Source: Lytechinus pictus (Eukaryota). Taken from it: a stretch of 64,000 nucleotides of DNA. Shown one piece after another: positions 13,399-55,798 of this stretch. Under the pieces are notes generated by a model. That model was not told where the DNA came from, searched no databases, and was given only the letters and a program-made list of their open reading frames with translations. The stretch lies in the NCBI RefSeq assembly GCF_037042905.1, contig NC_087245.1, forward strand, positions 26,662,001 to 26,726,000, written 5' to 3'. How positions within the stretch are numbered: the first letter of the stretch is position 1; every line of letters starts with the position of its first letter. The position numbers were made by a program, and so were the translations under genes.

Positions 13399-13987
13399 GT
13401 ATTGCACAGTGTCAAATCTGTCAAATGTCAAGGCTTTTACTATTCTCTTGATTTATTGACACAAAGTACATTTGAGATTTGACTCACTTGAGGATAATAT
13501 CTATCAGTTGTTGTCTTCTAATGTCAGTCTAAATCGATGGGAAACCCAATTATGTTACACTGTACTTGTAATAGAAAAAATCAATTCAATACAAAAGCAT
13601 TTCATAATTGTTAGAAAGTACTGGTAATCTATTATTGCCATTTATGTAATACACAGTTACATGTTAGGTTGCAGGGTAAAGGATGATTCAGGTCAATAAT
13701 CTTATGTATTACTATCATAATTACCTGTAACTTTCTTACAACAGGGTTATTGGGTACATCAAATCCTAGCCCGTAGCCAAGCGACACAAATTACTGGTTG
13801 CGAGGTCAAGGTTGAAGGTCATTTGAGTTCTATACTGTTCTTAGGTCGGACCACATTACATAGTATAGGGCTACCACAATTATCGATAACATAGAGGCCT
13901 CAAATCTAGTTTTGATGAAAGATATTTGTTATCCCATTTACATTCAAATGGTTTATTCCGAATTTCCTGTATAATCTTTTACTTCAG

Positions 13988-14447
13988 AACTGATGTCGTT
14001 CTTGATGGGATTGAAGAAGGCCGGATGCTAGCTACACCAAGTGACGATAATTTGAATGACAAACACGGTTGTCCTGCCTACGTTAGTCCAGAAATACTTC
14101 TCACCAATGGTAGCTACTCTGGTAAAGCTGCAGACATGTGGAGCCTGGGCGTCATTCTCTACACCATGTTGGTGGGGCGTTACCCATTCCATGATTCCGA
14201 TCCCGTCTCTCTCTTTACCAAAATCCGTCTTGGACAGTACAATGTTCCCGATTCCCTCTCCACCCAGGCCAAGTCAATGATTTACAGCCTGATGCGGGTG
14301 AGTCCTACTGAGAGACTTACAGCCGAGGAAGTCCTTGAGCATCCCTGGTTTCGAACCACCAGTCAGAAGTCATCAAGGAAATCAGAACCTAAGATGGTGG
14401 ATCAACTTGTTCCAGATTTTTTTTCTACAGATGATGATCTGACATAG
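13988..14447 (+). CDS. TRIB2: Tribbles pseudokinase, coding exon 3 (spliced CDS 1008 nt, 335 aa)
   Basis: Acceptor TTCAG|. Encodes DKHGCPAYVSPE, YSGKAADMWSLG, the MEK-binding LEHPWF and the COP1-binding DQLVPD, then a TAG stop. Phases join with exon 2. Confidence 0.95.
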
Positions 14448-24546: not shown

Positions 24547-25182
24547 TCAAGTTTGCAATAGTAGGTACCTCTGTAGGCGTGCTGGAAGTGGTAACAGTTT
24601 TACAGCAGTAGGAAGATGGGTGTTGTTGAGGTGGTGCCTAATAGTATAACGACACAGCTGGCGTAATGACCGGGGATGGGAGCAAAGCTGCCATAGCATA
24701 TTGCATAAAGCCGTGTCATTTTGAATGGCGGAGGGGATCAAACCATCTTCGTCTCGAATGTCAAACTGACCGGTAGCACTGATAAGTAGATTTAGGCAAC
24801 TTTCTTCCTCTTCAACGTCGAGTCCCGCTCCAATCAAGGAAGCAACCCGGGAGATGGGGGATACTCCGTCGACACTTGACGTGTGGGTCTCCACACCGTA
24901 CTCCAGGAGCAACTGCACACACTCGTGGTTTCCCTTCATTGCTGCCCAGTTCAGTGGAGTGTTGCCATGGATATCTGGTATGTTGATGGATGCATTCTTT
25001 GAAAGAAGAGCCTGGACACACTCAACCTGGTTGCGGAAGGAAGCCCAATGAATGGCAGTCTCACCGTTGGCGTTAAGGGCATTTGGGTCAGCACCAGATT
25101 CCAGGAGAAGGCTTAGGCAGTCTACATCTTGTTCAGCAGCGTAATGAATAGCAGCTCGACCGTACCCATCAACAGCATTTAC
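24547..25182 (-). CDS. ASB8: Ankyrin repeat and SOCS box protein 8-like, last coding exon (spliced CDS 864 nt, 287 aa)
   Basis: VNAVDGYGRAAIHYAAE...ETAIHWASF...NTPLNWAAMKGN ankyrin repeats and a C-terminal SOCS box (SLRQLCRYTIR...LPLPARLQRYLLL), then TGA. Acceptor TACAAG|, phase 0. Confidence 0.92.
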   Translation of the reverse strand, partial: VNAVDGYGRAAIHYAAEQDVDCLSLLLESGADPNALNANGETAIHWASFRNQVECVQALLSKNASINIPDIHGNTPLNWAAMKGNHECVQLLLEYGVETHTSSVDGVSPISRVASLIGAGLDVEEEESCLNLLISATGQFDIRDEDGLIPSAIQNDTALCNMLWQLCSHPRSLRQLCRYTIRHHLNNTHLPTAVKLLPLPARLQRYLLLQT

Positions 25183-25471
25183 CTTGTAATGAAAGAATTA
25201 CCAAAGAAAATCATCCATTTATTGGGGTTTATTTCTGTTTTTGAATCAGCCCTAGTGCAAAGACTTTCAACTTATGACACTTCAAAGCTTCAGCTGATCA
25301 CATTAAAACTTTCTTTTCATATACTGTGATAGCTGAAAAAAAGTGAAATACATAGCTGACAAATTCAAACTAGACATTTCTCATCTAATTACAGTTTTAA
25401 ATGATGCAATTAATGTTAAAATACTGAGCGTACAGAATAAAAATACATTTTATTGAAAAGCTGCAACATAC

Positions 25472-25603
25472 CTCTGCACCGTGATCCAGAAGAAGCTTAA
25501 CATAATCATCCTCTCCTGTCATGCAAGCACAGTGTAGAGGTAGGAGGGTGCCATGCAACTGATTCACGTCGGCTCCTTCAGCGAGAACAGATTCTACAGA
25601 GTC
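25472..25603 (-). CDS. ASB8: ASB8-like, coding exon 2
   Basis: DSVESVLAEGADVNQLHGTLLPLHCACM...LLLDHGAE matches the ASB8 motif GADVN-HGTL-PLHCACM. Acceptor TGCAG|, donor GAG|GTATG. Confidence 0.92.
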
Positions 25604-26278
25604 CTGCATACACAGAAATAGAATGAAACCATCAAACAGCTGACAATGTACATTTTCCTTGTAGTTTTGTACAAAGAGGCTCTAACACATTTAGATGGTG
25701 ATTTGAAGTAGTTTGGTTATTCAACATGCTCAGACAGGTACAATGTACACTGAAGTTTTTTTTTAATACAGGCATATCGCGATCCTACATTAAAATTCAT
25801 TTCAATTGGGAACCAGACTACAATGAAAATAACCACATTTTTGTTTCTCCCATTTTTCTAAAATAAAATTCGTGTCAGATAATTTAGGCCCTATCAATAT
25901 TCCAGGGCTCAAATAAATCCAAGGCAATCAAAGGACATGGCTTCCGATGCCCACAGAAATGTCCTTGATGCCCTTTGCAGATTTAGAAGGCCAAAATAAT
26001 TTTTTGCCCTCATTAATTTGACTCAATGATTTTGCTTTCTATTCTGGTAGTTACATGTATGATTTAAATGGATTTTGTAAAATATTTTAAATTAAAACAT
26101 CACTTATTTTTTTAGTTTTCATGAAACATTGTCTGATTGTCATCCCATCACACAGTATAAAAGTGAAGAAAAAAGCAGTGTAAACAATTTTTTCATTATT
26201 TTTTTTAAATTCATTTTGTTATTTTTATTTTTCATTTTTATTTGGGGGGGGGGGGCTTGAACCCATAATTTTAGGTGA

Positions 26279-26400
26279 GACTTTGAGCATGACTTTGAGC
26301 ATGGACTTTGAGCATGACTTTGAGCATGACTTTGAGGCGTTTGAGCATGACTTTGAGCATGACTTTGAGCATGACTTTGAGCATGGACTTTGAGCATGAC
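26279..26400. repeat. 12-bp minisatellite (GACTTTGAGCAT)n, about 10 units, in an ASB8 intron
   Basis: Directly visible tandem array starting about 20 nt past the splice donor. Confidence 0.95.
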
Positions 26401-26420
26401 TGGAGAATAGGGGCCCTTAC

Positions 26421-26516
26421 CTTAGGTGATAGGGTCCAGCCGCTGATTGCTCTGATAAGCCTATCAGACAATGTAAATCGGTGCTGAGCCATAGCAAAGC
26501 AGTGGTACATGCTCAT
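26421..26516 (-). CDS. ASB8: ASB8-like, coding exon 1
   Basis: MSMYHCFAMAQHRFTLSDRLIRAISGWTLSPK resembles the ASB8 N-terminal SLSERLIRTIA. Donor AAG|GTAAGG. A strong polypyrimidine/TAG acceptor before 26542 implies an upstream non-coding exon. Confidence 0.88.
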
Positions 26517-29500
26517 AACAACAAAATATCAGCTTAAAACATCTAGAAGAGAGAACAAAAAAAAAGAAAAAAGAAACAAATGACTTAATTTGATTACAGT
26601 AAATTGTTTACTATCAGGGACTACATGTACAGTACTTAAATTTCAAAGGGCTGTCATGACATCAAGCTGGTTTTAAAGAAATTAGTTTTTGACGAAAATC
26701 CATCATAATGTTGAAAGTTTTCAAAATCAAAGTTGTATTTCTTGTAATTTAGGAACATCAAATCCAAGTTGATACCCCATCATATCTATCATAACACAGA
26801 TTCTATAAATTGTCATTTTTAATGATTCATTATGAATTTTGTCATAGAATATTCAATTTGTACAACCATGCTGCCATGTTGTAGGCCTAGATACATGTAA
26901 ACATGCTTATCAAGTCAACCTCAATAAATTGAGTATTTGTACAAGTCAAATCAATCTTTTTTAGACAAGATTATAAATTTACCAATTTATTATGCAACTT
27001 AATTGGTATTATGAGAACAATTTTATCTTCATTTTATCTCTGTAAGACACACCTATTTTCAATCAATATCCAATGAGAAACACCCTTTTATAGCTCTCTG
27101 AGTCTCTCATCTCTTTCAACCAATGGAAATCCATTCCGCAAGGAGGTGTGGCAAAAGAGTGAGATTGCGTCAATTTATTGACGCAATTTGCGTCTTTACA
27201 GAGATTTTATTTTTTTACGACAATACTCTCATCTCTTTTTCGAAGTCTAGATCTATATCACATCTTTTCAAGCATCATTTCAAAGACAATATTTAAAGAA
27301 AAGTCTTATTCAAAGTAATTCCTGATCATGCTGATTGTACAGGAATAACGTTAAGGTGTTGTTATTCTCAATTAATATATCATTTTTCTTCATTTTCATG
27401 TCAACATTTGGAATTAATTACCTAAAAATATTGATGAAATCAACATCGCGGAGATAAAATAGCTCCTAGATTTTCTAGGCCTACCCTCTTAAATTCATTT
27501 CATTTTTTCATCAAAGCACTAACATGGGCGCAAGAACATCCGCGTTGCAATAGTAAAATACGCAATTGGTACCGGTAAGTCTACGCAGGCACTGCTCTGT
27601 CGCATATCATCTAAGTTACTTGTTAGTATAAAATTTAGTATTTAGTATTAAAATCGTCTGGATACGCAAACTGAAATTTTATCTCAGTCAGAGATTGTCA
27701 ATGTCAATGACAATGGCCAATGCCATCTCAGAATGACTCAGAATACTCAATACCAATTTCATTTTAAGAGATAAAATAAAATATTTTAAAGATAAAATGA
27801 CCTCAGAATACCGGTACCGCCCCTGATTTTTTTTTTCTTCAAACTTTAACTTAACTCCCCGTCAGTTAGTTCAAATTATTCTCCCCCCCCCCCCCTTAAA
27901 TTCCCAGTTCCCTCCCCAGCTTTCAACAATGTATACCCAGTTGTTGTGTGTCCGGACAGGTTGTGTGTCCGGACGATCAATTTTAGAAAGTCATTTGGAA
28001 AAATTTACAAGGGAAGTTTTATCAATTTTTAGTACAAAATGTCAGGAAATATTATAGAGAACAAAATAGTAGATGATTACAACTATTGATTTCGTATTTT
28101 TTAGTGTAATCCAAAGACAAAAAAAGAAGGCTTCAAAAATATAAAGTGTCCAGACACCCGACCCCCCATCCTACTAATGCCTAATGGCATGCCCACCATC
28201 GACGCCCGCCGCGATTAAGCGGCAGCGGAGCTCCTTGTCTCGACAAGCTGTGCTGTCGGCCCGCCGGCTCTCGGGGCTGAGGTGTTGTGACCGGCCGTAC
28301 TCCACTACCAACCAACCAGGTACGTAACTGACTAGTAGTAGTAGTTTAGTAAGAGGCTAAATAATGACAGTTAAGCAAATAACAATAGGGTAATAGAAAT
28401 AGTTTCCTAATCAACAAATGGGGATTATAAAGAACACACGTACCAGAATAAACTGCTTTTCTTTTCAGCTTAACCTTGGGCTTGGGCTTGGCCTTATTTT
28501 CGCCGAGAAACAGTCGACGTCGCAACTACGTACACATACGGTACCGGTACGTTGTTGTTGTTGTTGTTGTTGTCTTGTCGGGGGGGGGGGCCGGGGGCGA
28601 AATTATTTTTCCCACCGAGTTCTGGACCGACATATGAATATTCATGACTTGCGTCTTCGGATTGAGAGTACGCATGCGCATGCGCGTGGACTTGGCCTCG
28701 ACATTCACGTTGCTCAGAATGAATTAGCATCGTCAAATTACCGGTACCCTTACATAGTTACATAGGCCTTATAGGCTTAGATCTATATATACATCCAATT
28801 CTTAAACACTTATCAAACTAGCTGCCATTAATGGCAAGACATGTGCTAGGGTAGGGCTAGCTTAGGCTAGCGCATTAACTTTACCTCAAATCTGGACCTG
28901 TCTAATGCCTAATACTAATAGGAATAGCCGACTAATGCCATGGTTAATTTCGAACTTGTTAATTCCGAACTTTACGTTTGATTAGTTTTGGACCAATATT
29001 AGCTTGTTTACCATGGTTTAATATGTCTAGTCCGTATACAGAACCAGTCCTAGATCTAAAATAAATATCTTAGTTCTAGTCTAGTCTCTAGATCTAGACT
29101 CTGATCTACGCGCTATCAGCATGGAACCACTAGTGTACCAAAGGGGGGGGGGGGGGGCAGACTGCCCCCCTGACGAGTCACAACTGATCCAGGGGACGTG
29201 CCCCCCCCCCTTGAGAAGCCAAATTAATAATTTGTAATGTCAAAATGCAACGAAAAAAGACGTATGTCCCCTCTTTTGAACGTGAAAAAAATCTTTCTTT
29301 TTTTTCTTTTCAAATTTTTTTCAGCTACGAAATCCTTAATTTTGGGTGAAGACGGGGATCAAGATCACTGACGTTAATTTGTGCCTGACGTTAGAATACG
29401 TTCCATGCACGCACTGGTGTACCTAGGATTCTCCAAAAGGGGGGCAAATTTTTTAGAGGATATTTCGTCCGCGAAAAAATGTGACAAGCCCCCCCCCCAA

Positions 29501-29918
29501 AAAAAAGGGTATTCACCCCAAATTATGGATTTCTTAGCTAAAAAAAAAAGAAAAAGATCTTCACGTTCAAAAAAGGGGACATACGTCTTTTTCATTGCAT
29601 TTTTACATTCCAAATTATTAATTTGGCTTCTCAAAAGGAGCACGTCCCCTGAATCAGTTGTGACTCGTCAGAGGGACAGTCTTCCCCCCTCCCCCTTGGT
29701 ACACTAGTGGTTCCATGCTGATACAGCGTAGATCAGAGTCTAGATATAGAGACTATAGACTAGAACTAAGATTTAAAAAAATTAGATCTAGGACTGGTTT
29801 TGTACACGGACTAGACATATTAAACCATGGCAAATAAGCTGATATTTGTCTAAACCTAATTAAACGTGAAGTTCGGAATTAACCAGTTCGAAGTTAACCA
29901 TGGCATTAGTCGGCTATT

Positions 29919-32900
29919 CAGTGTTGTAGTCAAGGCTCAAACCTCCAAGGCCAAGGCTTTAATACCCAAGGTCAAGGCTTCAATACCAAAGGCCAAGGCC
30001 AAGGCATGGAAACCCAAGGCCGAGGCCTGAAAACCTCAAGGCCAAGGCATTTCAAACTTACAATATACAGAACAATGAACTAACAATACTTAGGCGGCAG
30101 ACATCACACATGGTAAAATGTATGTGAGCGAGGGGACTGAGCGAGAAAAAAATTAACCTTTGTACATTTAAAACAAAAATAATTTCATGATAGAGACATA
30201 TTAAAATAATGATATAGTTACCTGTGTACACATAATCCATAATTTTTCTATAGGCGATTTACATTGCAATAATTATTATTACCACGGTCATCTGATCCTG
30301 GCATTCTCAACGTATGTTTTTCTCCATGCACTCCCTGGGACAGGGGCAGCAGAAAATTATCATGGGGGGGGGGGGTCAACGCCAAAAAGGCACCCATTTA
30401 TCAAAATGAGTTTTTTTGTGCAAACAGATACATGTATTTTCAAAATGAGATTATGAACTGCGTGAAGTAATTGTGTGTTTTATAGAAATTAAGTTGAGCA
30501 AAGGCCTTCTAAAATGATTTTTAATTATAAGATAGATATTTTGCTTTAGGTTTTACTTCTCAGCGAGAAAGCATAGCGAGCAAGCGGTTTTGAAAAAAAA
30601 AATCAATTCTGATGTTGTAAAACTTGATTTATGGTCAATTATGGGGCTAATCATTGTTGAAATTTCCTTGCGCGATGTTGCCAGCGCGAATCACCAGCTC
30701 AAACTTCTTGACATGTCGTGTAATAAGACATGGAAATTATTTTATTCTGAGCTGGTTTTGTAATCATGAAAAAGATGTGTATCTAACTAAAAAATAACTT
30801 TGCGCTCGCTAATTCTTTTTATATACTGACCAGTAAAGGAAGCAGTTAATTAAGCAGTTAATTACTGCATTTTAAATAAGATACATAACTCACCAATAAT
30901 AAAAAATAATGCGAGCGCAAAGCGCGAGCTCAAAAATTTGTGATATTCCAACCTGAAAACTGGACATTCTGAGCATTTTTTTGTGAACGGGAAGAGAACG
31001 AGTACAATAATTGATGCGAGTGCAGGAAGCGAGCCAAATAGTTGTGATATTTCAACCATAAAGCAACATTCTATACATTTTTGTAACCATTAGCAGTACT
31101 GTACTAAACAATAATTGATGCAAGCACGATTCAAAATCTGCGATTTTCAAACCTTAAAATGTATTATGTTTTATTATTAAAGAAGGTATTTCTTTTTAAA
31201 AAAGGGCATATTTCATTTGGAAAAAAAAATCCTACAGGGATTTTTTTTTGGGGGGGGGGGGGGGGGGGCAAGAGAGCACAAAGCGCAAGCTAAAATTTTC
31301 AAATGCTTAAACTGAAAATGAGTCATTTTTAGGACTCTTGTCAGTTTTCACATTTTTTTCTGCTTACAACCACTTTTTTTAAACTTTTAATTAATCATTA
31401 ATTATTAATACTTATTGATAATATTAATAATTATTAATTATTAAATTATTTTTTGTTAATTATTATTTCTTGAAACCATATTGACACAAAAACAAATACG
31501 TTGTTTATTTCCTTGTAACTGTAGAGAAATGAGATTCAATGTTGAACGATATATGATTAAAAAGAAGTAAACATTTTTTCCCCTTTGTTTTGTCAATCTG
31601 ACCCAAAACAAATATAAAAATTTAGAAGAGAGATAGATAGAAGAAGAAGTCCCACCACCAAGAATAAACTAAGACAAGGGGGGGAAGGGAAAGGAAAAGA
31701 TGGAGTAAATGTGATATTATTTTTTGAACAATCTATTGCAAAATTAGCTTTTCTTATAGAAAGAGGGGGACAAATTTTGTTCACTCGCTCGCTTCAATCG
31801 CTTTCTTCTTCTTTTTTGACAGAAATTTTGCTCTATATATGCCATGCTTGGCCCCTCAAAGTTTCTGGCTCATCATGCCATTGACATAACCCATTTGGAT
31901 ATGACACAATTGGAGACTGTGTTCAAGTTTACCAAATCTTTTCAGAATATCATTAAGACTTAAAACATTCTTGTTGGCCAAAGAAAATAATACAAGGAAA
32001 ATCCTAATGGAATAGAAATCAACCTTGTTATCGTTCTTTAGAGTTAGCTATGTTTAAAGTATGAAAATTGTTGTCAAAATTGCAGTCAGATGTAAAAATT
32101 ATTCTTGTCATCAAAGCAATATTATCTTGATCATGACCATTATTATTTACTGTCATTATCATCATATGATTTCAACACATTACCAATACATAATGCTATT
32201 TTTCATAACTGATGTATTCTTTGTTTGAATTTCTTGATAATGGTGACAATTACAATTGATGACACTGCTAGTACACTTACTACTGCTGCTGCTACTGTTA
32301 CTGGTGATTGGTAGTATTGACCATTAGTGTTATTAAATATATATTAAAAAAACAATTGAAACATTTATAATTACTTATTAAAACAAATGAAAGTACAAAA
32401 TACAAAATGCCTTGAAAATGCCTTAAAAAAAAAAAAATTCAAGGCTCAAAATCCTCAAGGCCAAGGCCCTCTCGAGGCCAAGGCTTTGAAAAAGTAGCTA
32501 GGCATTAAAGGAGAATGAAACCCTTGAAACCAGCTGAATCCATATCAAAGAGAAAAATCAAAGGAACACATTGTTGAAAGTTTGAGGAAGATTGAATGAA
32601 TAATAAGAAAGTTATGAGCATTTGAATATTGAGATCACTAGTGCCATGTAGATCCTCCCATCGGCAATGCGACCAAGATCTGTGATATCACACACGTACA
32701 ACTCCCTCATTACTTTAGTACTTATTTCACTTATATTCTCACTTTTATAGAGTCTGTCACAAGGTGAGGTGTTCTCTTTATGAGATGACAAGTACAGAGG
32801 TTTCACAACATTATATCATTGATGAATCGTTTGTCATATGATTAGAATGAGCAAAAAGAAATGTTTTGGGGTATATTTTCAGTGTCCAAATGGGAGAGTT

Positions 32901-33125
32901 GTACGTGTGTGACATCACAGATCTTGGTCGCATTGCCAATGGGAGGATCTCCATAGCATTAGTGATCTCGACATTCAAATGCTCATAACTCTTTTATTGC
33001 TAGTCCTATTTTACTCAAACTTTTGTTGATCTTATTTTTTTATTTTTCTGCTTTCACAAAAGCTAACTTGCTCCAAGAGTTTCATTCTTAAGGCCAAGGC
33101 CGAGCATCAAGGCACTACAACACTG
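29919..33125. mobile_element. Non-autonomous DNA transposon inserted in the right arm of the inverted duplication
   Basis: Perfect 12-bp TIR CAGTGTTGTAGT / ACTACAACACTG, with subterminal CAAGGC repeats near both ends. No clean TSD. Confidence 0.8.
32509..33087. mobile_element. TTAA-flanked MITE nested in the 29919-33125 element
   Basis: TTAA|AGGAGAATGAAACCCTTG ... CAAGAGTTTCATTC|TTAA with long internal inverted repeats. It splits the CAAGGC subterminal array. Confidence 0.75.
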
Positions 33126-33131
33126 ATTAGT

Positions 33132-33380
33132 GTAGTAGGTTTCACGGTACACCATGTATCTTTCTTGGGCAGATGTTGGTCCTGAAAAGGACCACCCAAT
33201 CTCGACGTTTCGACAAGTGTGTTCTTGTCGTTTTCTCCTGAGGACGACAAGAACACACTTGTCGAAACGTCGATATTGGGTGGTCCTTTTCAGGACCAAC
33301 ATCTGCCCAAGAAAGATACATGGTGTACCGTGAAACCTACTACACTATTCTTCTTTGTCATGGAAACCTTCAGAAATTAT
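33132..33380 (+). mobile_element. Penelope-like (PLE) inverted pLTR fragment with 13-bp TSD
   Basis: Arms 33128-33231 and 33244-33347 are inverted copies with one mismatch seen. A 33-nt unpaired tail follows (33348-33380). Flanked by AACACTGATTAGT at 33119-33131 and 33381-33393. Carries a hammerhead motif. Confidence 0.75.
33234..33275 (+). ncRNA. Minimal type I hammerhead ribozyme motif 1
   Basis: TCTC-CTGAGGA-C-GACAAG-aacaca-CTTGTC-GAAA-CG-TC-GATA. Stem II is 6 bp, stem III is the palindrome ACGT, and the triplet is GTC. Stem I has one mismatch, and the mirror arm shows the pairing allele GAGA. Confidence 0.75.
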
Positions 33381-34700
33381 AACACTGATTAGTACTAGGC
33401 ATTAATTAGACAGGTCCAGATTTGAGGTAAAGTTAATGCGCTAGCCTAAGCTAGCCCTACCCTAGCACATGTCCATTAATGGCAGCTAGTTTATTAAGTG
33501 TTTAAGAATTGGATATATATATATATAGATCTAAGCCTATAAGACCTATGTAACTATGTAAGGGTACCGGTAATTTGACCATGCTAATTCATTCTGAGCA
33601 ACGTGAATGCTTACGATCGGCACTGGTCGAGGCCAAGTCCACGCGCATGCGTACTCTCAATCCGAAGACGCAAGTCATGAATATTCATATGTTGGTCCAG
33701 AACTCGGTGGGAAAAATAATTTCGCTGTCGGCGGGAGGGGGGGGGGTGCCTGGTGGCGAGTATCTGTATACCCACGTTACTGGGCCACTCTGAGTCTCTA
33801 TTCATGAATGACATTTAATATACCAATGCAAAAATAATGTAACATTACTTTTCAACCTAATATAACTTATTTTTCCCCTTATTTTCCCACCTATATATAA
33901 GCCTATATAGCCCTCTATATAGTTCGTTGTATGCCTTATGATGACCGCCGCTGACCGCTGCATGGGCCCTGGGGAAACTCTCTTTTTAAAATTAGGTCAT
34001 AGGATTCCTGCGTTTCAATTTGCGATAGATTTGATCCCCTTAGTTATACAATGGACCCTAGGGTCCATGGTTATATCTTTTTACTTATAAAGAGAATAAC
34101 ATAAAATTTTCTATGGTTTCATATATAAAGTTTAGATCATATACATACTACTTTACGTATGGATACATATCGATACACTCTGTATTCAGCGGCCCCAAAT
34201 TCCCTCTCCTCTTTATAGTTTGGCCGGATCATCATGTTTTATTTATAATTGTAAAAATGGAACCTATATCTCCCAAGAAAAAAAATTGATGAAAATAAAA
34301 TTGTGAAAATTTTAAACAAAAAACCTTTTATAACACATCTGCATTTAATTACCTCTCGTTAACAGTTAAAGGAAAATGTAACCTCTAGAACAGAACAACT
34401 TGTGTGAAAACAGAAAAAAAACAGATCAACGAAAGTTTGAGAAAAATTGAATGAATAACAAGAAATCTATGAGCATTTGAAGTTTAGGTCATATAGTTCC
34501 TCCTATTGGCGATGCGACAAAAATGTAAATGTGTGATGTCACATGTGAACAACTTTCCCATTGCTTTTGTATATATATATATTGTCATAACTTGACAAAG
34601 CCCTATGGGCGAAAATTCGTTAAAATATTACTGTCCACGGAGTTTTTATACTTTTCTTTGTTTGAACCTATTTATAATCTCCGAGCAGATCATTTGACTA

Positions 34701-34725
<25 letters not shown>

Positions 34726-34732
<7 letters not shown>

Positions 34733-35052
34733 GGCATCCACTCTTTAACATGACTACTGTGTCTTGTACCAAATACTTAGGCGAAAAAATTACAAGACGA
34801 TTTGACGTTGCTGGAAGACCACAATTTAATCGAGCTTTCGGCCTAAGGCCTTCTTCATGGGTTCTATAAACAAAAACGAACGAAACATAATCAATAGTAC
34901 AAAGGGAGGAACAGATGGACATATGAACATATAATACTGATATAATTGAAGATTGAAGGCTCATTGTTGGTGCCCATTGTTGTTCCCTGTGTAGTAGATG
35001 ACATGTTTCGTTCAGGCTTGTGTTTAGTGGTCCAGCCGTCAAGGCTGGACCA

Positions 35053-35056
<4 letters not shown>
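34726..35056 (-). mobile_element. Probable PLE 3' fragment embedded in (TA)n
   Basis: Complex sequence bounded on both sides by TA runs. It has a 14-bp terminal hairpin (35024-35056) and a hammerhead-like motif. Confidence 0.55.
34828..34863 (-). ncRNA. Degenerate minimal hammerhead motif 2
   Basis: Minus strand AACCC-ATGAAGA-A-GGCC-tta-GGCC-GAAA-GC-TC-GATT. Stem II, GAAA, the AGCT palindrome and the CTC triplet are present. The first core C and stem I are imperfect. Confidence 0.5.
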
Positions 35057-35090
<34 letters not shown>

Positions 35091-35205
35091 TATAAATTTA
35101 AAATTTAAATATATATAAATATATAAATATATTATATATATATATATATATATTATATATATGTATATCACTGGTGTACCTAGGATTTTCCAGAAAATAA
35201 ATATA

Positions 35206-35246
<41 letters not shown>

Positions 35247-35456
35247 AATGAGTTGTGACTCGTCAGGGGGGCAGTCTGCCTCCCCTTAGATACGCTAGTG
35301 ATGTATATGTACATAGGCGGATCCAGCTTTTGGCGAAAGGGGGGGGGGGCGGGGCGCACTGCCGAGCGGCGCACATATTTTTGCACTTCACCGGCGCTAT
35401 AAAAGAAAATGTTGAAAAAGGCGTAAAGTCTGACCCTGTCAAATGCTCTTTTCAAA

Positions 35457-35489
<33 letters not shown>

Positions 35490-35542
35490 ATAATGGGATG
35501 AGGCGAGGCCAACTCAACAGATGACGCAGGACACCATTATTT

Positions 35543-35582
35543 GCTTTAGCTTTCGTCTTTTAATTGAGACTTCGTCAGAAGC
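35543..35582 (-). ncRNA. Minimal type I hammerhead ribozyme motif 3 (intact)
   Basis: Minus strand GCTT-CTGACGA-A-GTCT-caattaaa-AGAC-GAAA-GC-TA-AAGC. Full core, stem I GCTT/AAGC, stem II GTCT/AGAC, palindromic AGCT stem III and CTA triplet. Lies in a ~118-bp insert (35493-35610) between TA runs. Confidence 0.8.
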
Positions 35583-35603
35583 GTCTGAAAAACATAAGGA
35601 GAT

Positions 35604-35652
<49 letters not shown>

Positions 35653-35658
35653 GTATAT

Positions 35659-35815
35659 CACTGGTGTACCTAGGATTTTCCAGAAGGGGGGGCAAATTTT
35701 TTGGAGGATATTTCGTCCGCGTTTTTTGTGACTCGTCAGGGGGGCAGGGATACGTCCTCTCCATGAGTTGTGACTCGTCAGGGGGGCAGTCTGCCTCCCC
35801 TTAGATACGCTAGTG
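35659..35815. mobile_element. hAT-like MITE
   Basis: CACTGGTGTACCTAGG ... CTTAGATACGCTAGTG with 8-bp TSD ATGTATAT. Related copies at ~35169-35300 and 29412-29708. Confidence 0.8.
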
Positions 35816-36520
35816 ATGTATATGTACATAGGCGGACCCAGCTTTTGGCGAAAGGGGGGGGGGGGCGCACTGCCGAGCGGCGCACATATTTTTGCACTTC
35901 ACCGGCGCCATAAAAGAAAATGTTGAAAAAGGCGTAAAGTCTGACCCTGTCAAATGCTCTTTTCAAAATGTAGGATTTCCAGTCATGCCATTTTGCATGA
36001 CCACACGCAAATAATATTTCCGGGGGGGGGGGGGCAAGACTCGAAAATTTGGTGCACATCTCACATTTGCAAATTTTTCATAGTTTTCATGAAATGTTAA
36101 GGAAAAAAAATTGTTTTTCACAACAGCAGATCGCGAATGTGCCCCCCCCTTCCCCCTTGCTGCGTACGACCATTCCCTGAAGTCCACTTAAACATATCTC
36201 ATTATAACAGAAAATATACATCAATTTAAACATATAATCTTTCTAAAACATATATAGAGAGAGATTGAAAAACTTATTAAAGAAAGAAACAAGCAAAAAG
36301 TAACACAAATTATGCATGTAAGTGCGATTTCAAAATCTCGTGTATTAACCCTTTTATTGCGATGAGGCCAATACTTTTCTATATTAATAGAGATACAAGT
36401 TTTGTTTTACACAGGGGCGTCGATCCTTTTTTTAAGATTTGGGGGGCAAAATCATGAATCAACTTTCCAAAGGCGCTCGATATCACACAAAACAAACTCA
36501 CACAAACACACACACACACA

Positions 36521-49360: not shown

Positions 49361-50622
49361 CCAAAATTAGCCGTAAATAAAAATGTTAAGAAATTTATCT
49401 AAACATGTATCGTAATTTCTGTTATCATAGAAATGCCTTTGCCCAAATTCGAATAGTTTCCCAGCTTGTTATAAGGTCCACTCGAGATTTTCTATAGCGG
49501 CCATTTTGGAATTCAGCATGGCTGTCAATCCGATAAAAACAACCATTAGGGACATGTTTTTTTTTTTCAATATAAAGAATGGATGGAATTATGTTATGTT
49601 TCACCAGTTTTAATCATTTTAGATGCTTGTAACCAGGTGTGTATGTCACAATGTGTTGCATGATGATCCCCCACTTGAACTAAAAGTGTATTAAAATTTC
49701 GGACATCACAATCGAGTCATTTCACCATAATTTGAACATTCCACAATGGGCTAAAATGCAATACTTTATGGCGGTCATTTTAAGATTAAAATTGCGGATG
49801 ACGACATGGTCGGAAAATGGTACCAAATTTGTTTTTTGATTTAGCACCCCTGAATTGACAAAGTTAGCTAAAAATTGATTTTCGTACGATTATCTCATTT
49901 TATATTAGCCTCTGCTAACACATCAACTTCATTCAAACTCAGTTTATCTTCGATTTTACTATTGAGAATAAACGATTTTGCAACATTTCATTTTTAACAT
50001 CGCTGCCTATTTATCAGGACCTCACATGCCATAATTGTGAAGAGGAATAATCAAGCTTTTGAAAATTGAAATTATATCATGATGATGTCCACAGCAATAG
50101 GAAATTTATCCTGTAAAACGTGAGTTGCCTGTTTTTTTTTAAGGGTGTGCACAATATTTTGCCCCGTTCTGTCTAAAATTTGACTAAATTTTGATTTTAA
50201 GAAATTAATAAATAATAAGATGTTTCGCTGAGCGAAAGTTTGTTTTTGGAAATATATGATATTTTTCACCATGTAAAGCTTTAAATGCTATACTATGCAA
50301 AATAATTTGATATTCGAGATTGCAGATTGGAGATACCGTAGTAGGTACTAAAACTATTAGTACCTACGTGGCAATAGTAGGACGTGCAATTCACTTTCTC
50401 TGAAAAAATCAGGAAAATATCAGGAAAATTCTGTAAATTATACCAATACCGCGTTGTTAGTCTAAATTGTGCATTTGGAACATCGCTATATGGTCAAGTG
50501 ACAGGGTAAGCGAACATTTGTGGGCTTTTTAAGCACTTCACACTTACTTTATGTCGCAGGTCGCACCTATATACGCACCGTACTAACATTCAAATTTCCC
50601 GCCCTTTTACCAAAGGCCAATC

Positions 50623-52053
50623 ATGGCGACTGGGCCGGCGGCATCCGAGCCGGACCACACAATAACGAGTACGGATGAAGATAATATTTGGATGATACAA
50701 AGACCACGTCGAAAAAAAAGCACTTCGTACCAACCAGAAAAAAGAAAAAGAGAAAAGAGTGACGAGATTACAATTGAAAATATTAATCAAAATGCATCGT
50801 CAGACTCTGACTCGAATACATCATATCGTACTCCAGGTTTTACTTCGACCAAAAGATTGTCTGATTTCAAGCTATTTATAGCACCTATAGATAGACAGAA
50901 GAAATTGAATTTAAGGAATATTGATCCCTTAAAAGTTAAAAGAGCGATCAGAGACGTGAGTTCACAACCAGTAGAGTTTATCAAACCAATTAGCACTGGG
51001 TTGCTGGTAAAGTGTATCAACCTAAAGCAAATGAAATCCATCGCACAGATGCAAAACATTGGTAATATACCAGTAAAGGTCACGGAAAGTAGGTCGGGAA
51101 TTAAAGGAGTGATATATGGTGTCCCAACTGAAACATCAGAAGAGGATATTCTTGAAGAATTGAGGGACCAGAAAGTGACAGCAGTAAAAAGAATAGTAAA
51201 GAAATATCAGAGAAACAAAAATGACAAAGAAAGAGAAGATGTTGATATCAATCAGCCTACTTTTATTCCCTTGAGGAGTGTGATTCTTACTTTTAGTCGG
51301 GCAGATCTCCCTCAGAATGTCAATCTAGGCTACCAGATGTTTATAGTAAAACCATATATCCCTCCTGTATTCAGATGTTTTAAGTGTCAAAGGTATGGTC
51401 ACACTGCTGATATATGTAGATCTCAGATTAGATGTGTTAGATGTGGAGATCACCATAATTTTGATCAATGCCCAAAGAAATTGACACCAATATGTGCCAA
51501 TTGTGGAGGTGAACACTCCGCTGCATTTAAAGGATGCCAGCAGGCAAAAAAAGCAAAAGAAGTACAAGAAATAAAGATAATAAGAAAGCTAACATATGCT
51601 GAAGCATCCCAGGTCTGGAAAACACAAAGTGAAAAAAGGGTCACACAGACAGTCACTGAAGATGCTAAAGAATGTTCCCAATCAGTACCTAAGTTAAGAG
51701 AAAAAACCAACTTAACAGATGACCAGAGTAAAGTTACAAATACACAGGTAGAAACAGTTTCAAGTGAACTACCTATGGAGACTAACCTCCCTGTCGACAC
51801 CCAACAAAGGGATACGCCACTGTCTGCAGTTAAAGACCAGGCTACCAGGTCAGCCGGTACATCGGCAAAGAACACCACACCTAATTTCATAAGTCTAGCT
51901 AGTGATGAGCAAATTGTTGTTTTTATATGTCAATTGATTATGTCATTAACTGAAGGGAGAGAAGAAGAAGAAATAAATGCTTTAATTTTAACCGCTGCAA
52001 GAAGATTGCGGCAACAAAAAAAGGAAATCATAACTCAACAACGCAGGAACTAA
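50623..52053 (+). CDS. LINE ORF1, gag-like nucleic-acid-binding protein
   Basis: 476 aa with KGVIYGVP and three zinc knuckles: CFKCQRYGHTADIC, CVRCGDHHNFDQC and CANCGGEHSAAFKGC. Confidence 0.92.
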   Translation: MATGPAASEPDHTITSTDEDNIWMIQRPRRKKSTSYQPEKRKREKSDEITIENINQNASSDSDSNTSYRTPGFTSTKRLSDFKLFIAPIDRQKKLNLRNIDPLKVKRAIRDVSSQPVEFIKPISTGLLVKCINLKQMKSIAQMQNIGNIPVKVTESRSGIKGVIYGVPTETSEEDILEELRDQKVTAVKRIVKKYQRNKNDKEREDVDINQPTFIPLRSVILTFSRADLPQNVNLGYQMFIVKPYIPPVFRCFKCQRYGHTADICRSQIRCVRCGDHHNFDQCPKKLTPICANCGGEHSAAFKGCQQAKKAKEVQEIKIIRKLTYAEASQVWKTQSEKRVTQTVTEDAKECSQSVPKLREKTNLTDDQSKVTNTQVETVSSELPMETNLPVDTQQRDTPLSAVKDQATRSAGTSAKNTTPNFISLASDEQIVVFICQLIMSLTEGREEEEINALILTAARRLRQQKKEIITQQRRN

Positions 52054-55000
52054 CGCTTTCCTTGCCCTACTTTCCATTCTTCAATGGAATTCTCAGGGCT
52101 TACTAGGGCACGGACAAGAGCTACTTAATCATCTAAAAATAAATAAAGAATATGATTTAATTTGTGTTCAAGAAACGTGGTTTTATGATAATAGTTCACT
52201 TTGTATTCCAAATTATACATGCCTCCCAAGAAATAGGGAAGGTCAACGAAGAGGGGGTTGTGCAATATATATTCATGATAGGATTAAGTACGAAGATCCA
52301 ATCAATGATTCAAGTCTAGAATTACAACATGTGAACATATATGTCACCAATAAAAAAATATCTATCATCAACTTTTATAATCCATGCAAAAAATTAAACG
52401 AATCAATTCTAAACACATTGTTGAAGAATGTTAATGAAACAGATAACCTAATAATCTTAGGTGATTTCAACGCTCATAGTACCCTCTGGGGCAGTGACAA
52501 AACCGACAGAAATGGACAAGCCATTGAGCAATTTATATATGAGAATAACTTAATAGTATTGAATGATAAAACAGGAACTAGACTTGATCCTTGTACTGGA
52601 AAGCTTTCGTGCTTAGATCTATGTATGTCCTCCCCATCACTGGCCGGTAAGGCGATATGGAAGGTTATGGAAGATTCCTTTGGGAGCGATCATTTTCCAA
52701 TTATTATACAAATAACACTTGGAAAGAAAGGTAAAAATCATGAAAATCTAAGTAATCAGGCCAAAGATAACATGCCTCATGAACATATTTCTTTCAAGAA
52801 TGTTAACTGGCCCATATTTGCATACAAATGTGAAAATATCATAAAAAATGAAATAATTAAATCTGAAGATGGTATTAAGAACATTTTTTATTCATTTATG
52901 GAACGCTTGAAGGAATGTATTCATGAAGCAGTCCCGAAAAAAAGAAAGACGGGGAAAAATCCTGTCCCATGGTGGAACAAGGAATGTACTGAAAAGATTA
53001 AAGAAAGAAATAGAATAAGAAACCACCTATCAAGAAAAATCACACTTGATAGAATTAACGAATACAAAAAAAAGAAGGCAGAAGCCCAACGAGTTCTCCG
53101 GAAAGCGGAAAGAGAATATTGGCAAGCTTTTTGCAGAAGACTAGACAGATTCATGCCAGAGACAAAGATATGGTCATGTATAAAACGTTTAAATGGTGTA
53201 CCTGTCAAAAAATCACAAAATATGCCTATTTTGATTGAGAAAGGTAAAGCCATTACGTCCTTAACAGAGAGAGTAGAGATTTTTGGAACTTATTTCCAAT
53301 CCTTAGGACAAAAAAATAAAGATTCCAATAAAACATTAACCAAGGAAGTACAAAATTCTTTCTACCAAAATGAACATGTTATTAATGAACCTTTCTCGAT
53401 GAATGAATTTGAGAAAGCAGTTATATCTAGTAAATTTGCTGCTCCAGGAAAAGATAATATTCCATACATTGTATACGAAAATATGCCAAAAAGCACAAAA
53501 GAAATTATGTTGACCATTATTAATAGAATATGGGAATCCGGGGATATCCCGAGTTCTCTAAAACACTCAATTTTAGTACCAATCTTGAAATCTGGTAAGG
53601 ACTCAAAAAATGTTATCTCCTATAGACCAATATCACTTACATCTTGTTTTGCCAAAGTTATAGAGCGTATGATAAAAGACAGATTGCAATGGTACATGGA
53701 TAAAAATAACTTATTGCCTAATTTCATCAGTGGTTTTAGAAAAGGTCGTAGTACTACTGACAATATTGTTTTATTAGAAAATGACATTCAAAAATCTATC
53801 AATTGCAGTGAGCACACTCTTGCAGTATTTTTGGATGTCGAAAAGGCTTATGACAGTCTTTGGATTGATGGATTACTGTACAAACTCACTCAATGTGGTA
53901 TAGGAGGAAAAATGTTACATTTTTTAGAAAATTATCTAACAGAACGTACCTTTCAGGTAAGAGTTACAAATACTGAATCCAGAACATTTCAAATCCATAA
54001 CGGACTCCCCCAGGGGAGTGTTCTGAGTCCCCTTCTATATAATGTCATGATGAGAGATATTCCAATTGATCCTGAAGTGACATTATCCATATATGCTGAT
54101 GATTGTGCAGTATGGTTTTCTGGAAAAAATGTAGAGAATATTAGATTAAGGATACAAACTTATCTAGATGTATTATGTACCTGGTTTAAAGACTGGGGCT
54201 TCAATTTTTCTATTGAGAAGACTGTTCCGGTATTTTTTACTAAGCTTTCAAACGTTACCCCTCCAACAATCAAGTTTGAAGGGAGTATACTCACTTATAA
54301 AAATAATCACCGTTTCCTTGGAATGATATTTGATAGTAAATTGTCTTGGCATCCCCATATAGAGAACGTAGTTTCAAGAAGTAAAAGGAAATTAAATATA
54401 TTGCGAAGTTTAACAGGAACTAAATGGGGAAGTTCATCTAAGTCCTTACTTATGGTTTACAGGGCAATTATTAGATCAATTTTTGATTATGGTTGTCAAG
54501 CTTATGATAGTGCTCCAGTAACTACAAAAAAATTGTTAGACTCGGTGCAATATCAGGCACTCAGAATATGTGCTGGTGGGCTGCCATTAACATCGTTAGT
54601 TTCACTGCAGGTGGAAATGGGAGAACCCCCTTTAGATTTAAGAAGGCAAATGTTATCAAGCAAGTATAGACAAAATATAGAAAGACATAATAATCACCCA
54701 TTAATAACACGAATCAAACCATGCTGGCAGTTCGATTATCTTAAAGGTAAGAATGTTAGTAAACCGTTTGGTTACAGGCTCCAATCCAAGATAGGAAAAG
54801 AAATTAGTATCGAAAATATTATTTCTCCATCCTTTCCACCTTGGTTATTTTGTCCACCAGTTGTATCTACTGAATTGAGTTCACAAATCAAGAAATCGGA
54901 TCATCCAATACAATTACAACAATTGAGTTTGGAATTGATACATACAAAATGGTCACACCAACTCCATATATACACTGATGGATCCAAAGCCCCTGAAAAG

Positions 55001-55798
55001 GGGATTAGCTCAGCTGCTTTTTATGTACCTTATTTTTCCTGTTACCAAGGCAAAAGACTATCGAATTTCACGTCCTCCTATAGGGCTGAATTAATTGCGA
55101 TTGTTCTCGCACTGGAATGGATAGAATATTTAGATATATATACAGGTGTTGTTATTTTCAGTGATTCATTAAGTGCACTTTTATCTTTACAGAATCGGAA
55201 AGACGATCCTATCATTACAGAAATTCTAACTATTAGTACAAGACTCAAATATAAAGGTATAGAGGTATACCTGGAGTGGATCCCTGGTCACTGTGGAATA
55301 AAAGGAAATGAAATAGCAGACTCCTGCGCAAAAAAAGCTTTATCAAACAAAATAGAAATTCATAATCAAATAACATTATCAGAAATTATGCAACTTATTT
55401 CAAAAAGTTGTAAGATAATTTGGCAAGAAAGATGGAATAAAACTAACTCAGCACTGAAAGAATTGCAACCATCAGTGCTATCCACATATAAATGTAATCT
55501 AGGAAGACAGGAAACTGTACTCCATCGTCTCCGTTTTGGAGTCGCTGGTCTTAACCAAGATCTACTAAGATTAGGGATCCATCCAACAGGGTTTTGTGAT
55601 AGATGTCCTGAGGTAGAAACTGTCAGACATTATCTTTTACATTGTCCAAAATATATAATTGAAAGATCAATGCTCCTTGTAGAATTGAATGAATCACAGC
55701 CAGGACAAATAATGGAGTATTTAAAAAAAGATGACCCAGGGATACAGAAAGCATTTTTACGTTTCGTTTCAAGAACGAAACGTTTTAGTAAGGAGTGA
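52034..55798 (+). CDS. LINE ORF2: AP endonuclease, reverse transcriptase, RNase H, C-terminal zinc knuckle (start is the open-frame boundary, not an ATG)
   Basis: APE motifs ILQWNSQGL, CVQETW, GDFNAH and SDHFPI. RT motifs YRPISL, QGSVLSP and YADD. RNase H motifs YTDGSK, RAEL, SDSLSAL and WIPGHCGIKGNEIAD. C-terminal CDRC..ETVRHYLLHC. Confidence 0.95.
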   Translation, partial: LNNAGTNAFLALLSILQWNSQGLLGHGQELLNHLKINKEYDLICVQETWFYDNSSLCIPNYTCLPRNREGQRRGGCAIYIHDRIKYEDPINDSSLELQHVNIYVTNKKISIINFYNPCKKLNESILNTLLKNVNETDNLIILGDFNAHSTLWGSDKTDRNGQAIEQFIYENNLIVLNDKTGTRLDPCTGKLSCLDLCMSSPSLAGKAIWKVMEDSFGSDHFPIIIQITLGKKGKNHENLSNQAKDNMPHEHISFKNVNWPIFAYKCENIIKNEIIKSEDGIKNIFYSFMERLKECIHEAVPKKRKTGKNPVPWWNKECTEKIKERNRIRNHLSRKITLDRINEYKKKKAEAQRVLRKAEREYWQAFCRRLDRFMPETKIWSCIKRLNGVPVKKSQNMPILIEKGKAITSLTERVEIFGTYFQSLGQKNKDSNKTLTKEVQNSFYQNEHVINEPFSMNEFEKAVISSKFAAPGKDNIPYIVYENMPKSTKEIMLTIINRIWESGDIPSSLKHSILVPILKSGKDSKNVISYRPISLTSCFAKVIERMIKDRLQWYMDKNNLLPNFISGFRKGRSTTDNIVLLENDIQKSINCSEHTLAVFLDVEKAYDSLWIDGLLYKLTQCGIGGKMLHFLENYLTERTFQVRVTNTESRTFQIHNGLPQGSVLSPLLYNVMMRDIPIDPEVTLSIYADDCAVWFSGKNVENIRLRIQTYLDVLCTWFKDWGFNFSIEKTVPVFFTKLSNVTPPTIKFEGSILTYKNNHRFLGMIFDSKLSWHPHIENVVSRSKRKLNILRSLTGTKWGSSSKSLLMVYRAIIRSIFDYGCQAYDSAPVTTKKLLDSVQYQALRICAGGLPLTSLVSLQVEMGEPPLDLRRQMLSSKYRQNIERHNNHPLITRIKPCWQFDYLKGKNVSKPFGYRLQSKIGKEISIENIISPSFPPWLFCPPVVSTELSSQIKKSDHPIQLQQLSLELIHTKWSHQLHIYTDGSKAPEKGISSAAFYVPYFSCYQGKRLSNFTSSYRAELIAIVLALEWIEYLDIYTGVVIFSDSLSALLSLQNRKDDPIITEILTISTRLKYKGIEVYLEWIPGHCGIKGNEIADSCAKKALSNKIEIHNQITLSEIMQLISKSCKIIWQERWNKTNSALKELQPSVLSTYKCNLGRQETVLHRLRFGVAGLNQDLLRLGIHPTGFCDRCPEVETVRHYLLHCPKYIIERSMLLVELNESQPGQIMEYLKKDDPGIQKAFLRFVSRTKRFSKE

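Follow-up and report, generated by a model that had tools for sequence, protein, structure and literature searches.

Three clustered hammerhead motifs in the Lytechinus pictus genome very probably mark the pseudo-LTRs of separate Penelope-like element families

A 64-kb stretch of Lytechinus pictus DNA (the window, meaning the whole stretch analysed) holds three hammerhead-like motifs with H17 at 33271 (+), 35547 (-) and 34832 (-). According to an explanation that is very probable as a whole, each is a minimal hammerhead in the pseudo-LTR (pLTR) of a separate multicopy Penelope-like element (PLE) family, and remains of mobile elements have accumulated in the region. The motifs are genuine and of a known type, being new members of the PLE minimal hammerheads; motif 3 is a family homologue and not a conforming member of that class. 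A preliminary description had given all three the same CUGANGA layout. Its three positions are confirmed and the core is as described in motifs 1 and 2, but motif 3 reads AUGAAGA. The motifs are as follows.

33234..33275, + strand: motif 1, minimal hammerhead; core 33238-33244, H17 33271; mismatch in stem I; in a 107-bp hairpin when transcribed
35543..35582, - strand: motif 2, intact minimal hammerhead; core start 35578, H17 35547; stems I and II of 4 bp each
34827..34863, - strand: motif 3, hammerhead-like; AUGAAGA core (A3 opposite G8), core start 34858, H17 34832; weak stem I

All three share an extra base after A9, the G10.1-C11.1 pair, a stem II of at least 4 bp, GAAA, a palindromic stem III and NUH. 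Stem I is complete (4 bp) only in motif 2. In motif 1, two contiguous pairs are followed by a mismatch that is absent from 26 of 29 other family-1 copies, and motif 3 has a single contiguous pair. A stem I of 3-5 bp exists in motif 2 and is the norm for family 1; the window copy of motif 1 has it interrupted, and that of motif 3 is weak. C3 is kept in every family-1 (26/26) and family-2 (29/29) copy that covers core position 3.

A strict descriptor (exact CUGANGA, stem II of at least 4 bp, GAAA, palindrome, UH) matches twice in the 64-kb window, at motifs 1 and 2; 60 block-wise dinucleotide shuffles of the same sequence average 0.05 matches, with a maximum of 1. Allowing one core mismatch raises this to five matches (shuffle mean 0.63, maximum 4) and brings in motif 3, which is found only in this way because its core is AUGAAGA, not CUGANGA. 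The preliminary description had proposed an Rfam or descriptor search as a check; the strict descriptor recovers motifs 1 and 2 only, and Rfam yields no hammerhead match in the window, in the region or in three element loci, whether at the gathering score or at E<=10. Rfam matches to miRNA families fall on hairpins and TA runs, far under the gathering score. Among nine aligned motifs, which include two single damaged copies of other families, stem I played no part in selecting the sequences and shows double-sided changes at 4/4 pairs, with 69% of cells paired. Stem II is fully paired in this alignment, a result that is partly circular since the sequences were selected with a stem filter.

The PLE origin rests mainly on the copies elsewhere in the genome. 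A search of 812 Mb gives at least 57 copies of the family-1 insert, at least 41 of family 2 and at least 45 of family 3, the best 40 having been scored of 1440, 283 and 136 candidates, respectively. For all three families, other copies adjoin RT/GIY-YIG-type open reading frames, which bears out both the proposed pLTR origin and the check named for it. Family 1 occurs as tandem 2.8-kb units with open frames of 852-858 codons, and the insert sequence lies ~1.2 kb downstream of frames of up to 954 codons in family 2 and ~0.75 kb downstream of frames of up to 913 codons in family 3. RVT_1 is matched by the frames of all three (3/3). GIY-YIG scores over the cut-off in family 2 and reaches 22.0 bits against a cut-off of 22.6 in family 3; family 1 has no Pfam match to it, and there the motif can be made out by eye and gives a weak alignment with family 2. 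Every family has two 3' ends (with and without a tail), head-to-head inverted arms and 5' truncation, and families 2 and 3 end in (TA)n.

Protein identity between families 2 and 3 is 43% over 962 columns, so that calling the motifs unrelated was an overstatement; between families 1 and 2 it is 33% over 408. A CX4CX2C/H Cys-rich linker is found in families 2 and 3 and is absent from family 1; the form CX2-5CxxC before the endonuclease is present in family 2, and family 3 has His in the last place. Such a linker is assigned to Neptune and Nematis (bioRxiv 2021.04.23.441226). By this motif, families 2 and 3 are probably of the Neptune/Nematis (Zn-finger-linker) type, and family 1 is presumably of the Penelope/Poseidon type because the Cys-rich linker is absent.

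These data leave almost no probability that the motifs are chance look-alikes or single-copy decayed sequence. Such a reading would fit the missing Rfam match and the short folds of the three window motifs, whose stability does not exceed that of shuffles (z -0.3 to -1.05). Against it, all three motifs are multicopy and occupy the same place in PLE ends next to PLE frames, and the canonical pattern has 1,510 matches genome-wide versus 29 in controls, a 50-fold excess that refutes it. The preliminary description had also considered that the inserts might belong to retrozyme-like families, which would make them non-autonomous units. They are indeed short, non-coding and hammerhead-bearing, and a 2026 preprint derives animal retrozymes from PLE ends (bioRxiv 2026.07.22.740005). 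Each insert, however, aligns collinearly with the 3' terminus of a coding element and is 5'-truncated at varying points, and tandem arrays among the best-scoring copies consist only of the full 2.8-kb coding unit. At the loci examined the inserts are truncated ends of coding elements and not tandem non-coding units, which makes a retrozyme-like nature very improbable.

As pLTR hammerheads of PLEs, the motifs agree closely with published systems. The metazoan PLE minimal hammerheads share CUGANGA-H, G10.1-C11.1, GAAA, a 4-nt palindrome, NUH and a short stem I, and are likewise mostly solo copies from truncated elements, with opposite-strand pairs (Cervera & De la Pena 2014, PMC4209133); sea urchin examples appear in Fig. 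S3 of that paper. Motif 3 differs from them in having A3 opposite G8. The endonuclease-bearing Neptune and Nematis elements share with families 2 and 3 a single ORF with RT and C-terminal GIY-YIG, the Cys-rich linker, microsatellite-associated ends, an inverted 5'-truncated arm and an optional tail, while tail lengths and the final His of the family-3 linker set them apart (Craig et al. 2021, bioRxiv 2021.04.23.441226). Family 1 resembles the Penelope/Poseidon elements PAc of Anolis (PMC11167929) and Pen2a of Adineta (PMC3846280) in lacking the linker, in its tandem units, in TATA-like and initiator-like sequence just before the hammerhead, in an ORF start within the tail and in an inverted arm with target duplication. 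Unlike these, the family-1 copy in the window was amplified secondarily as cargo of a TIR element, and its 12-nt centre occurs in both orientations. The pLTR intron of Drosophila virilis Penelope ends 5' of stem I and exists in spliced and unspliced forms, a layout that families 2 and 3 share; unlike that element, they are of the Zn-finger-linker type and both forms are abundant as genomic copies. The pLTR anatomy is likewise described in PMC4209133, bioRxiv 2021.04.23.441226, PMC3846280 and PMC11167929.

Motifs 2 and 3 lie in the following setting.

34699..34724, no strand: (TA)13 tract bordering the family-3 insert at its 3' end
34725..34946, - strand: family-3 pLTR fragment, 5'-truncated, tail-bearing, intron-retaining; acceptor AG 34865-34864, donor absent
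34947..35056, no strand: single-copy spacer between motifs 2 and 3
35491..35609, - strand: family-2 pLTR fragment, 5'-truncated, tail-less, intron-retaining, between (TA)n tracts; acceptor AG 35586-35585, donor absent

In 3-kb loci, (TA)8+ arrays accompany 26/29 copies of family 2, 29/29 of family 3 and 3/29 of family 1, and they occur in 6 of 40 fixed-position 10-kb stretches of the genome. Families 2 and 3 carry a GT-AG intron whose 3' end lies 6 nt (family 2) or 5 nt (family 3) upstream of the core; its usual length is 173 nt in the former and 243-348 nt in the latter. Precisely spliced junctions are present in the genome for both: 79 for family 2 (63 exact; control 1), a number that may include close relatives, and 27 for family 3 (20 exact; control 6). 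The window copies retain only the 3' part of the intron, without a donor.

The setting of motif 1 is of another kind.

28597..33725, no strand: multicopy non-autonomous TIR element carrying the family-1 insert; 5.1 kb, TIRs ~330 bp; putatively Mutator-like
32503..33088, no strand: young 585-bp MITE nested in this carrier copy; at least 24 copies at 99-100% among the matches listed
33119..33131, + strand: 13-bp target-site duplication flanking the family-1 insertion, left copy; carrier copies have these flanks too
33125..33231, - strand: inverted tail-less family-1 pLTR arm; intact stem I 3' arm, no core in this copy
33232..33381, + strand: family-1 solo pLTR with a tail of 30 nt; initial codons of the element ORF from 33360
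33381..33393, + strand: right copy of the 13-bp target-site duplication

What had been described as a short insert is for motif 1 a 107-bp inverted repeat, 98% identical between its arms, nested in a 5.1-kb inverted-repeat element. The family-1 insert recurs with identical flanks in at least 15 other places among the best-scoring matches, and the carrier is collinear end to end in 4/4 fetched copies. A 9-bp target duplication flanks these four exactly in two cases and with 8/9 in one, and is lacking in the fourth; none was found around the window copy. Motif 1 is thus a passenger of a multicopy inverted-repeat transposon, with no separate insertion here. The claim of three independent insertions fails for motif 1, which arrived as cargo of the TIR carrier. 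Fourteen other distinct carrier loci were examined, and in the 11 that were parsed the core is on the left (minus) arm in ten and on the right arm, as in the window copy, in one. The 12-nt hairpin centre, found in both orientations among carrier copies, has flipped; in the window copy this joined the core to the arm with the stem I mismatch. A transcript of the insert folds as a single hairpin of -212.1 kcal/mol in which stem II has a probability of 0.0.

The cluster had been taken for an insertion hotspot. This applies to the families of motifs 2 and 3, which share (TA)n-rich sites, but not to motif 1, which came inside a DNA-transposon-like carrier. Fixed-position samples totalling 400 kb give two descriptor matches, both at one locus. 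Under uniform placement, rough arithmetic predicts ~0.02 triples within 2.4 kb per genome, so that the trio is not pure background; at the observed rate of co-occurrence the figure is ~0.13, again rough, as the strict pattern misses damaged copies. Another family's motif lies within 1.5 kb at 3/58 family-2/3 loci versus 0.35 expected, and at 0/29 family-1 loci; one of the three co-occurring loci involves a close relative of family 2. Such a trio is rarer than one would expect from uniform chance, and the shared (TA)n sites account for only part of it. A cluster of this kind carries little weight, being expected now and then in a genome with ~1,500 PLE hammerhead copies.

The preliminary description had further suggested that motifs 2 and 3 could pair in one read-through RNA as a heterodimeric ribozyme. 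Both lie on the same strand, 715 nt apart, and their AGCU palindromes can form a 4-bp stem III. An ASB8-like gene, whose product in the window is 100% identical to L. pictus ASB8-like, lies 7-9 kb away on the same strand; a coding-intron setting is rejected, all coding exons being at 26516-24547, and the motifs could lie only within an unseen 5' UTR intron. In the published dimer model (PMC4209133, Fig. 1 legend), the two palindromes pair. The geometry that follows is an exchange: each core acts on the cleavage strand of its partner, with a stem I made of a 5' arm from one motif and a 3' arm from the other. The proposed heterodimer finds no support, since the exchanged stem I arms of motifs 2 and 3 are not complementary: the motif-3 core with the motif-2 site has a mismatched closing pair, and the motif-2 core with the motif-3 site gives G-U, A-U and then a mismatch. 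Two-strand energies, which as nearest-neighbour values leave out tertiary contacts and protein help, are -1.7 kcal/mol for motifs 2 and 3 versus -13.1 for the motif 2 homodimer (-3.5 for motif 3 with itself, -7.5 for motif 1 and -20.3 for the family-1 norm). In the 811-nt minus-strand transcript (35610-34800), the forced heterodimer lies 15.4 kcal/mol above the minimum and the hetero stem III has a probability of ~0.001. Motif 3 also lacks C3, and C3G or G8C abolished cleavage in a PLE hammerhead (PMC11167929). Such pairing is extremely improbable.

The three inserts, read as PLE debris, suggest the following history. In line with the published PLE model, the element protein would nick AT-rich DNA and reverse transcription would start 70-110 nt downstream of the hammerhead, so that even the shortest truncated insertions would retain the motif. 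Families 2 and 3 would have inserted 700 bp apart within a (TA)n-rich patch, whereas the family-1 insertion would be a single event inside a TIR element that later spread and of which one copy adjoins the patch. In the parent elements, the motifs of tandem pLTRs could pair as homodimers, with cleavage that may be weak or protein-assisted. No same-family partner for any of the solo copies was found in the 64-kb window, and the three, without promoters or splice donors, are most likely inert. RNA reads on 34725-35056 number 0, 2 and 2 in ~6% of three raw runs, too few to weigh; they include none on the single-copy spacer and no pile-up of starts or ends, and the sampled individuals may lack the insertion. 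A contig run of uncertain type covers the repeat part only, and among the listed records that contain the sequence none is an RNA entry.

Family 3 stands out by its core. Position 3 is A in 84 of 85 pattern matches genome-wide, U in one, and never C or G. The copies closest to the window copy match it at 99-100% identity and one family-3 copy has the 913-codon open frame, which indicates that family 3 moved recently in the A3 state. It combines young copies and an open ORF with a fixed C3-G8 loss and offers a natural comparison with its canonical relative family 2 in the same genome. If the family-3 core cleaves, it is a new core variant; if it is dead, this is a natural case of a PLE that stayed mobile despite a dead ribozyme, a less novel outcome that still bears on the purpose of the motif. 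The role of the hammerhead in endonuclease-bearing PLEs is described as unclear (bioRxiv 2021.04.23.441226).

It is unlikely, taken jointly, that the core works though non-canonical, either with A3 opposite G8 or as C3 with an A inserted before U4, and that it is active in spliced RNA or with the element protein; a ribozyme that is dead and dispensable is more likely. In favour of a working core, 29 family-3 copies share variants at 0 of 21 constrained positions versus 22 among 149 columns in the flanks (p 0.045 one-sided, 0.08 two-sided), but over the motif as a whole conservation does not exceed that of the flanks (3/27 vs 22/149, p 0.77). An older subfamily has 4/5 stem I pairs, and reading the A as an insertion after C3 gives 3/4 pairs in young copies, while the younger subfamilies, the window copy included, have lost one stem I base. 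Nine long family-3 loci hold no second canonical hammerhead, the search giving one weak match outside the pLTR. C3 pairs with G8 in the hammerhead core, and natural core variants of low activity are known (PMC3088659). The C3-G8 pair is nonetheless required in the tested PLE hammerhead: in the Anolis element, single C3 or G8 changes abolish cleavage and leave in vitro insertion unaffected (PMC11167929). The text-readable rows of Fig. S3 in PMC4209133 have C3 or U3 only and no A3 core. A literature search for an A3 core or a PLE heterodimer gave nothing on point within its coverage; Lunse et al. 2017 (RNA Biol 14:1499), outside that coverage, may describe A3.

The idea that splicing rescues family 3 by building a longer stem I did not hold up against its control: 28 of 40 shuffles of the upstream sequence equal the best value. 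The cost of a hammerhead-shaped fold is 0.5 kcal/mol in one spliced family-3 copy versus 4.1 unspliced, and 5.6 spliced versus 4.5 kcal/mol unspliced in the other subfamily.

Full-length units of family 1, one of three Penelope-like element (PLE) families with hammerhead motifs in their pseudo-LTRs (pLTRs), lie outside the window in head-to-head arrays (loci L091-L093), and several of them keep uninterrupted frames. These units and additional features of the window are as follows.

G000:C10:11.88-11.90 Mb: full-length family-1 units in head-to-head arrays, 2808-2826 bp each
Window 13890-14447 (+): kinase-domain exon, presumably Tribbles-like
Window 24547-26516 (-): ASB8-like host gene with three coding exons
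Window 28922-29919: additional long inverted-repeat element, nested within the carrier, the multicopy inverted-repeat element that holds the family-1 insert
Window 50587-55798 (+): LINE, apparently intact; its first frame has 488 codons, and another, of 1254 codons, encodes endonuclease, RT and RNase H domains

Several independent family-1 insertions start or invert at a TATA-like/initiator-like point before stem I, as if copying had reached the 5' end of the RNA. At L091 (~530-570), the stretch of the pLTR immediately 5' of stem I contains a TATA-like box together with a sequence resembling an initiator.

Within the carrier, the 107-bp arms of the family-1 insert are separated by a 12-nt centre (window 33232-33243), which is found in both orientations among carrier copies (L142-L151, L027-L029), at a ratio of 10 to 1 in the 11 other parsed loci. 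When this centre is inverted, the hammerhead core changes arms.

Eight spliced family-3 junctions occur on one strand of G000:C21:5.70-6.40 Mb in steps of ~93-115 kb, and this arrangement suggests a large tandem amplification. Comparison by eye indicates that the family-3 exon 5' of the intron (L086, L087, L090, L097) has a 13-nt stretch in common with the template RNA of the Anolis PLE PAc, where it lies 3' of the hammerhead; the match may be due to chance. In the 3' UTR of a family-2 copy (L102), the upstream part of the pLTR is tandemly duplicated over ~580 nt.

The family-2 insert of the window is flanked on both sides by a local duplication (35133-35461 and 35623-35972), whose blocks are 97-100% identical and spaced 490-515 bp. 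(TA)n tracts are found at junctions in the first copy and are absent from the matching places in the second, a hint that some (TA)n are products of insertion or repair and did not exist beforehand as targets.
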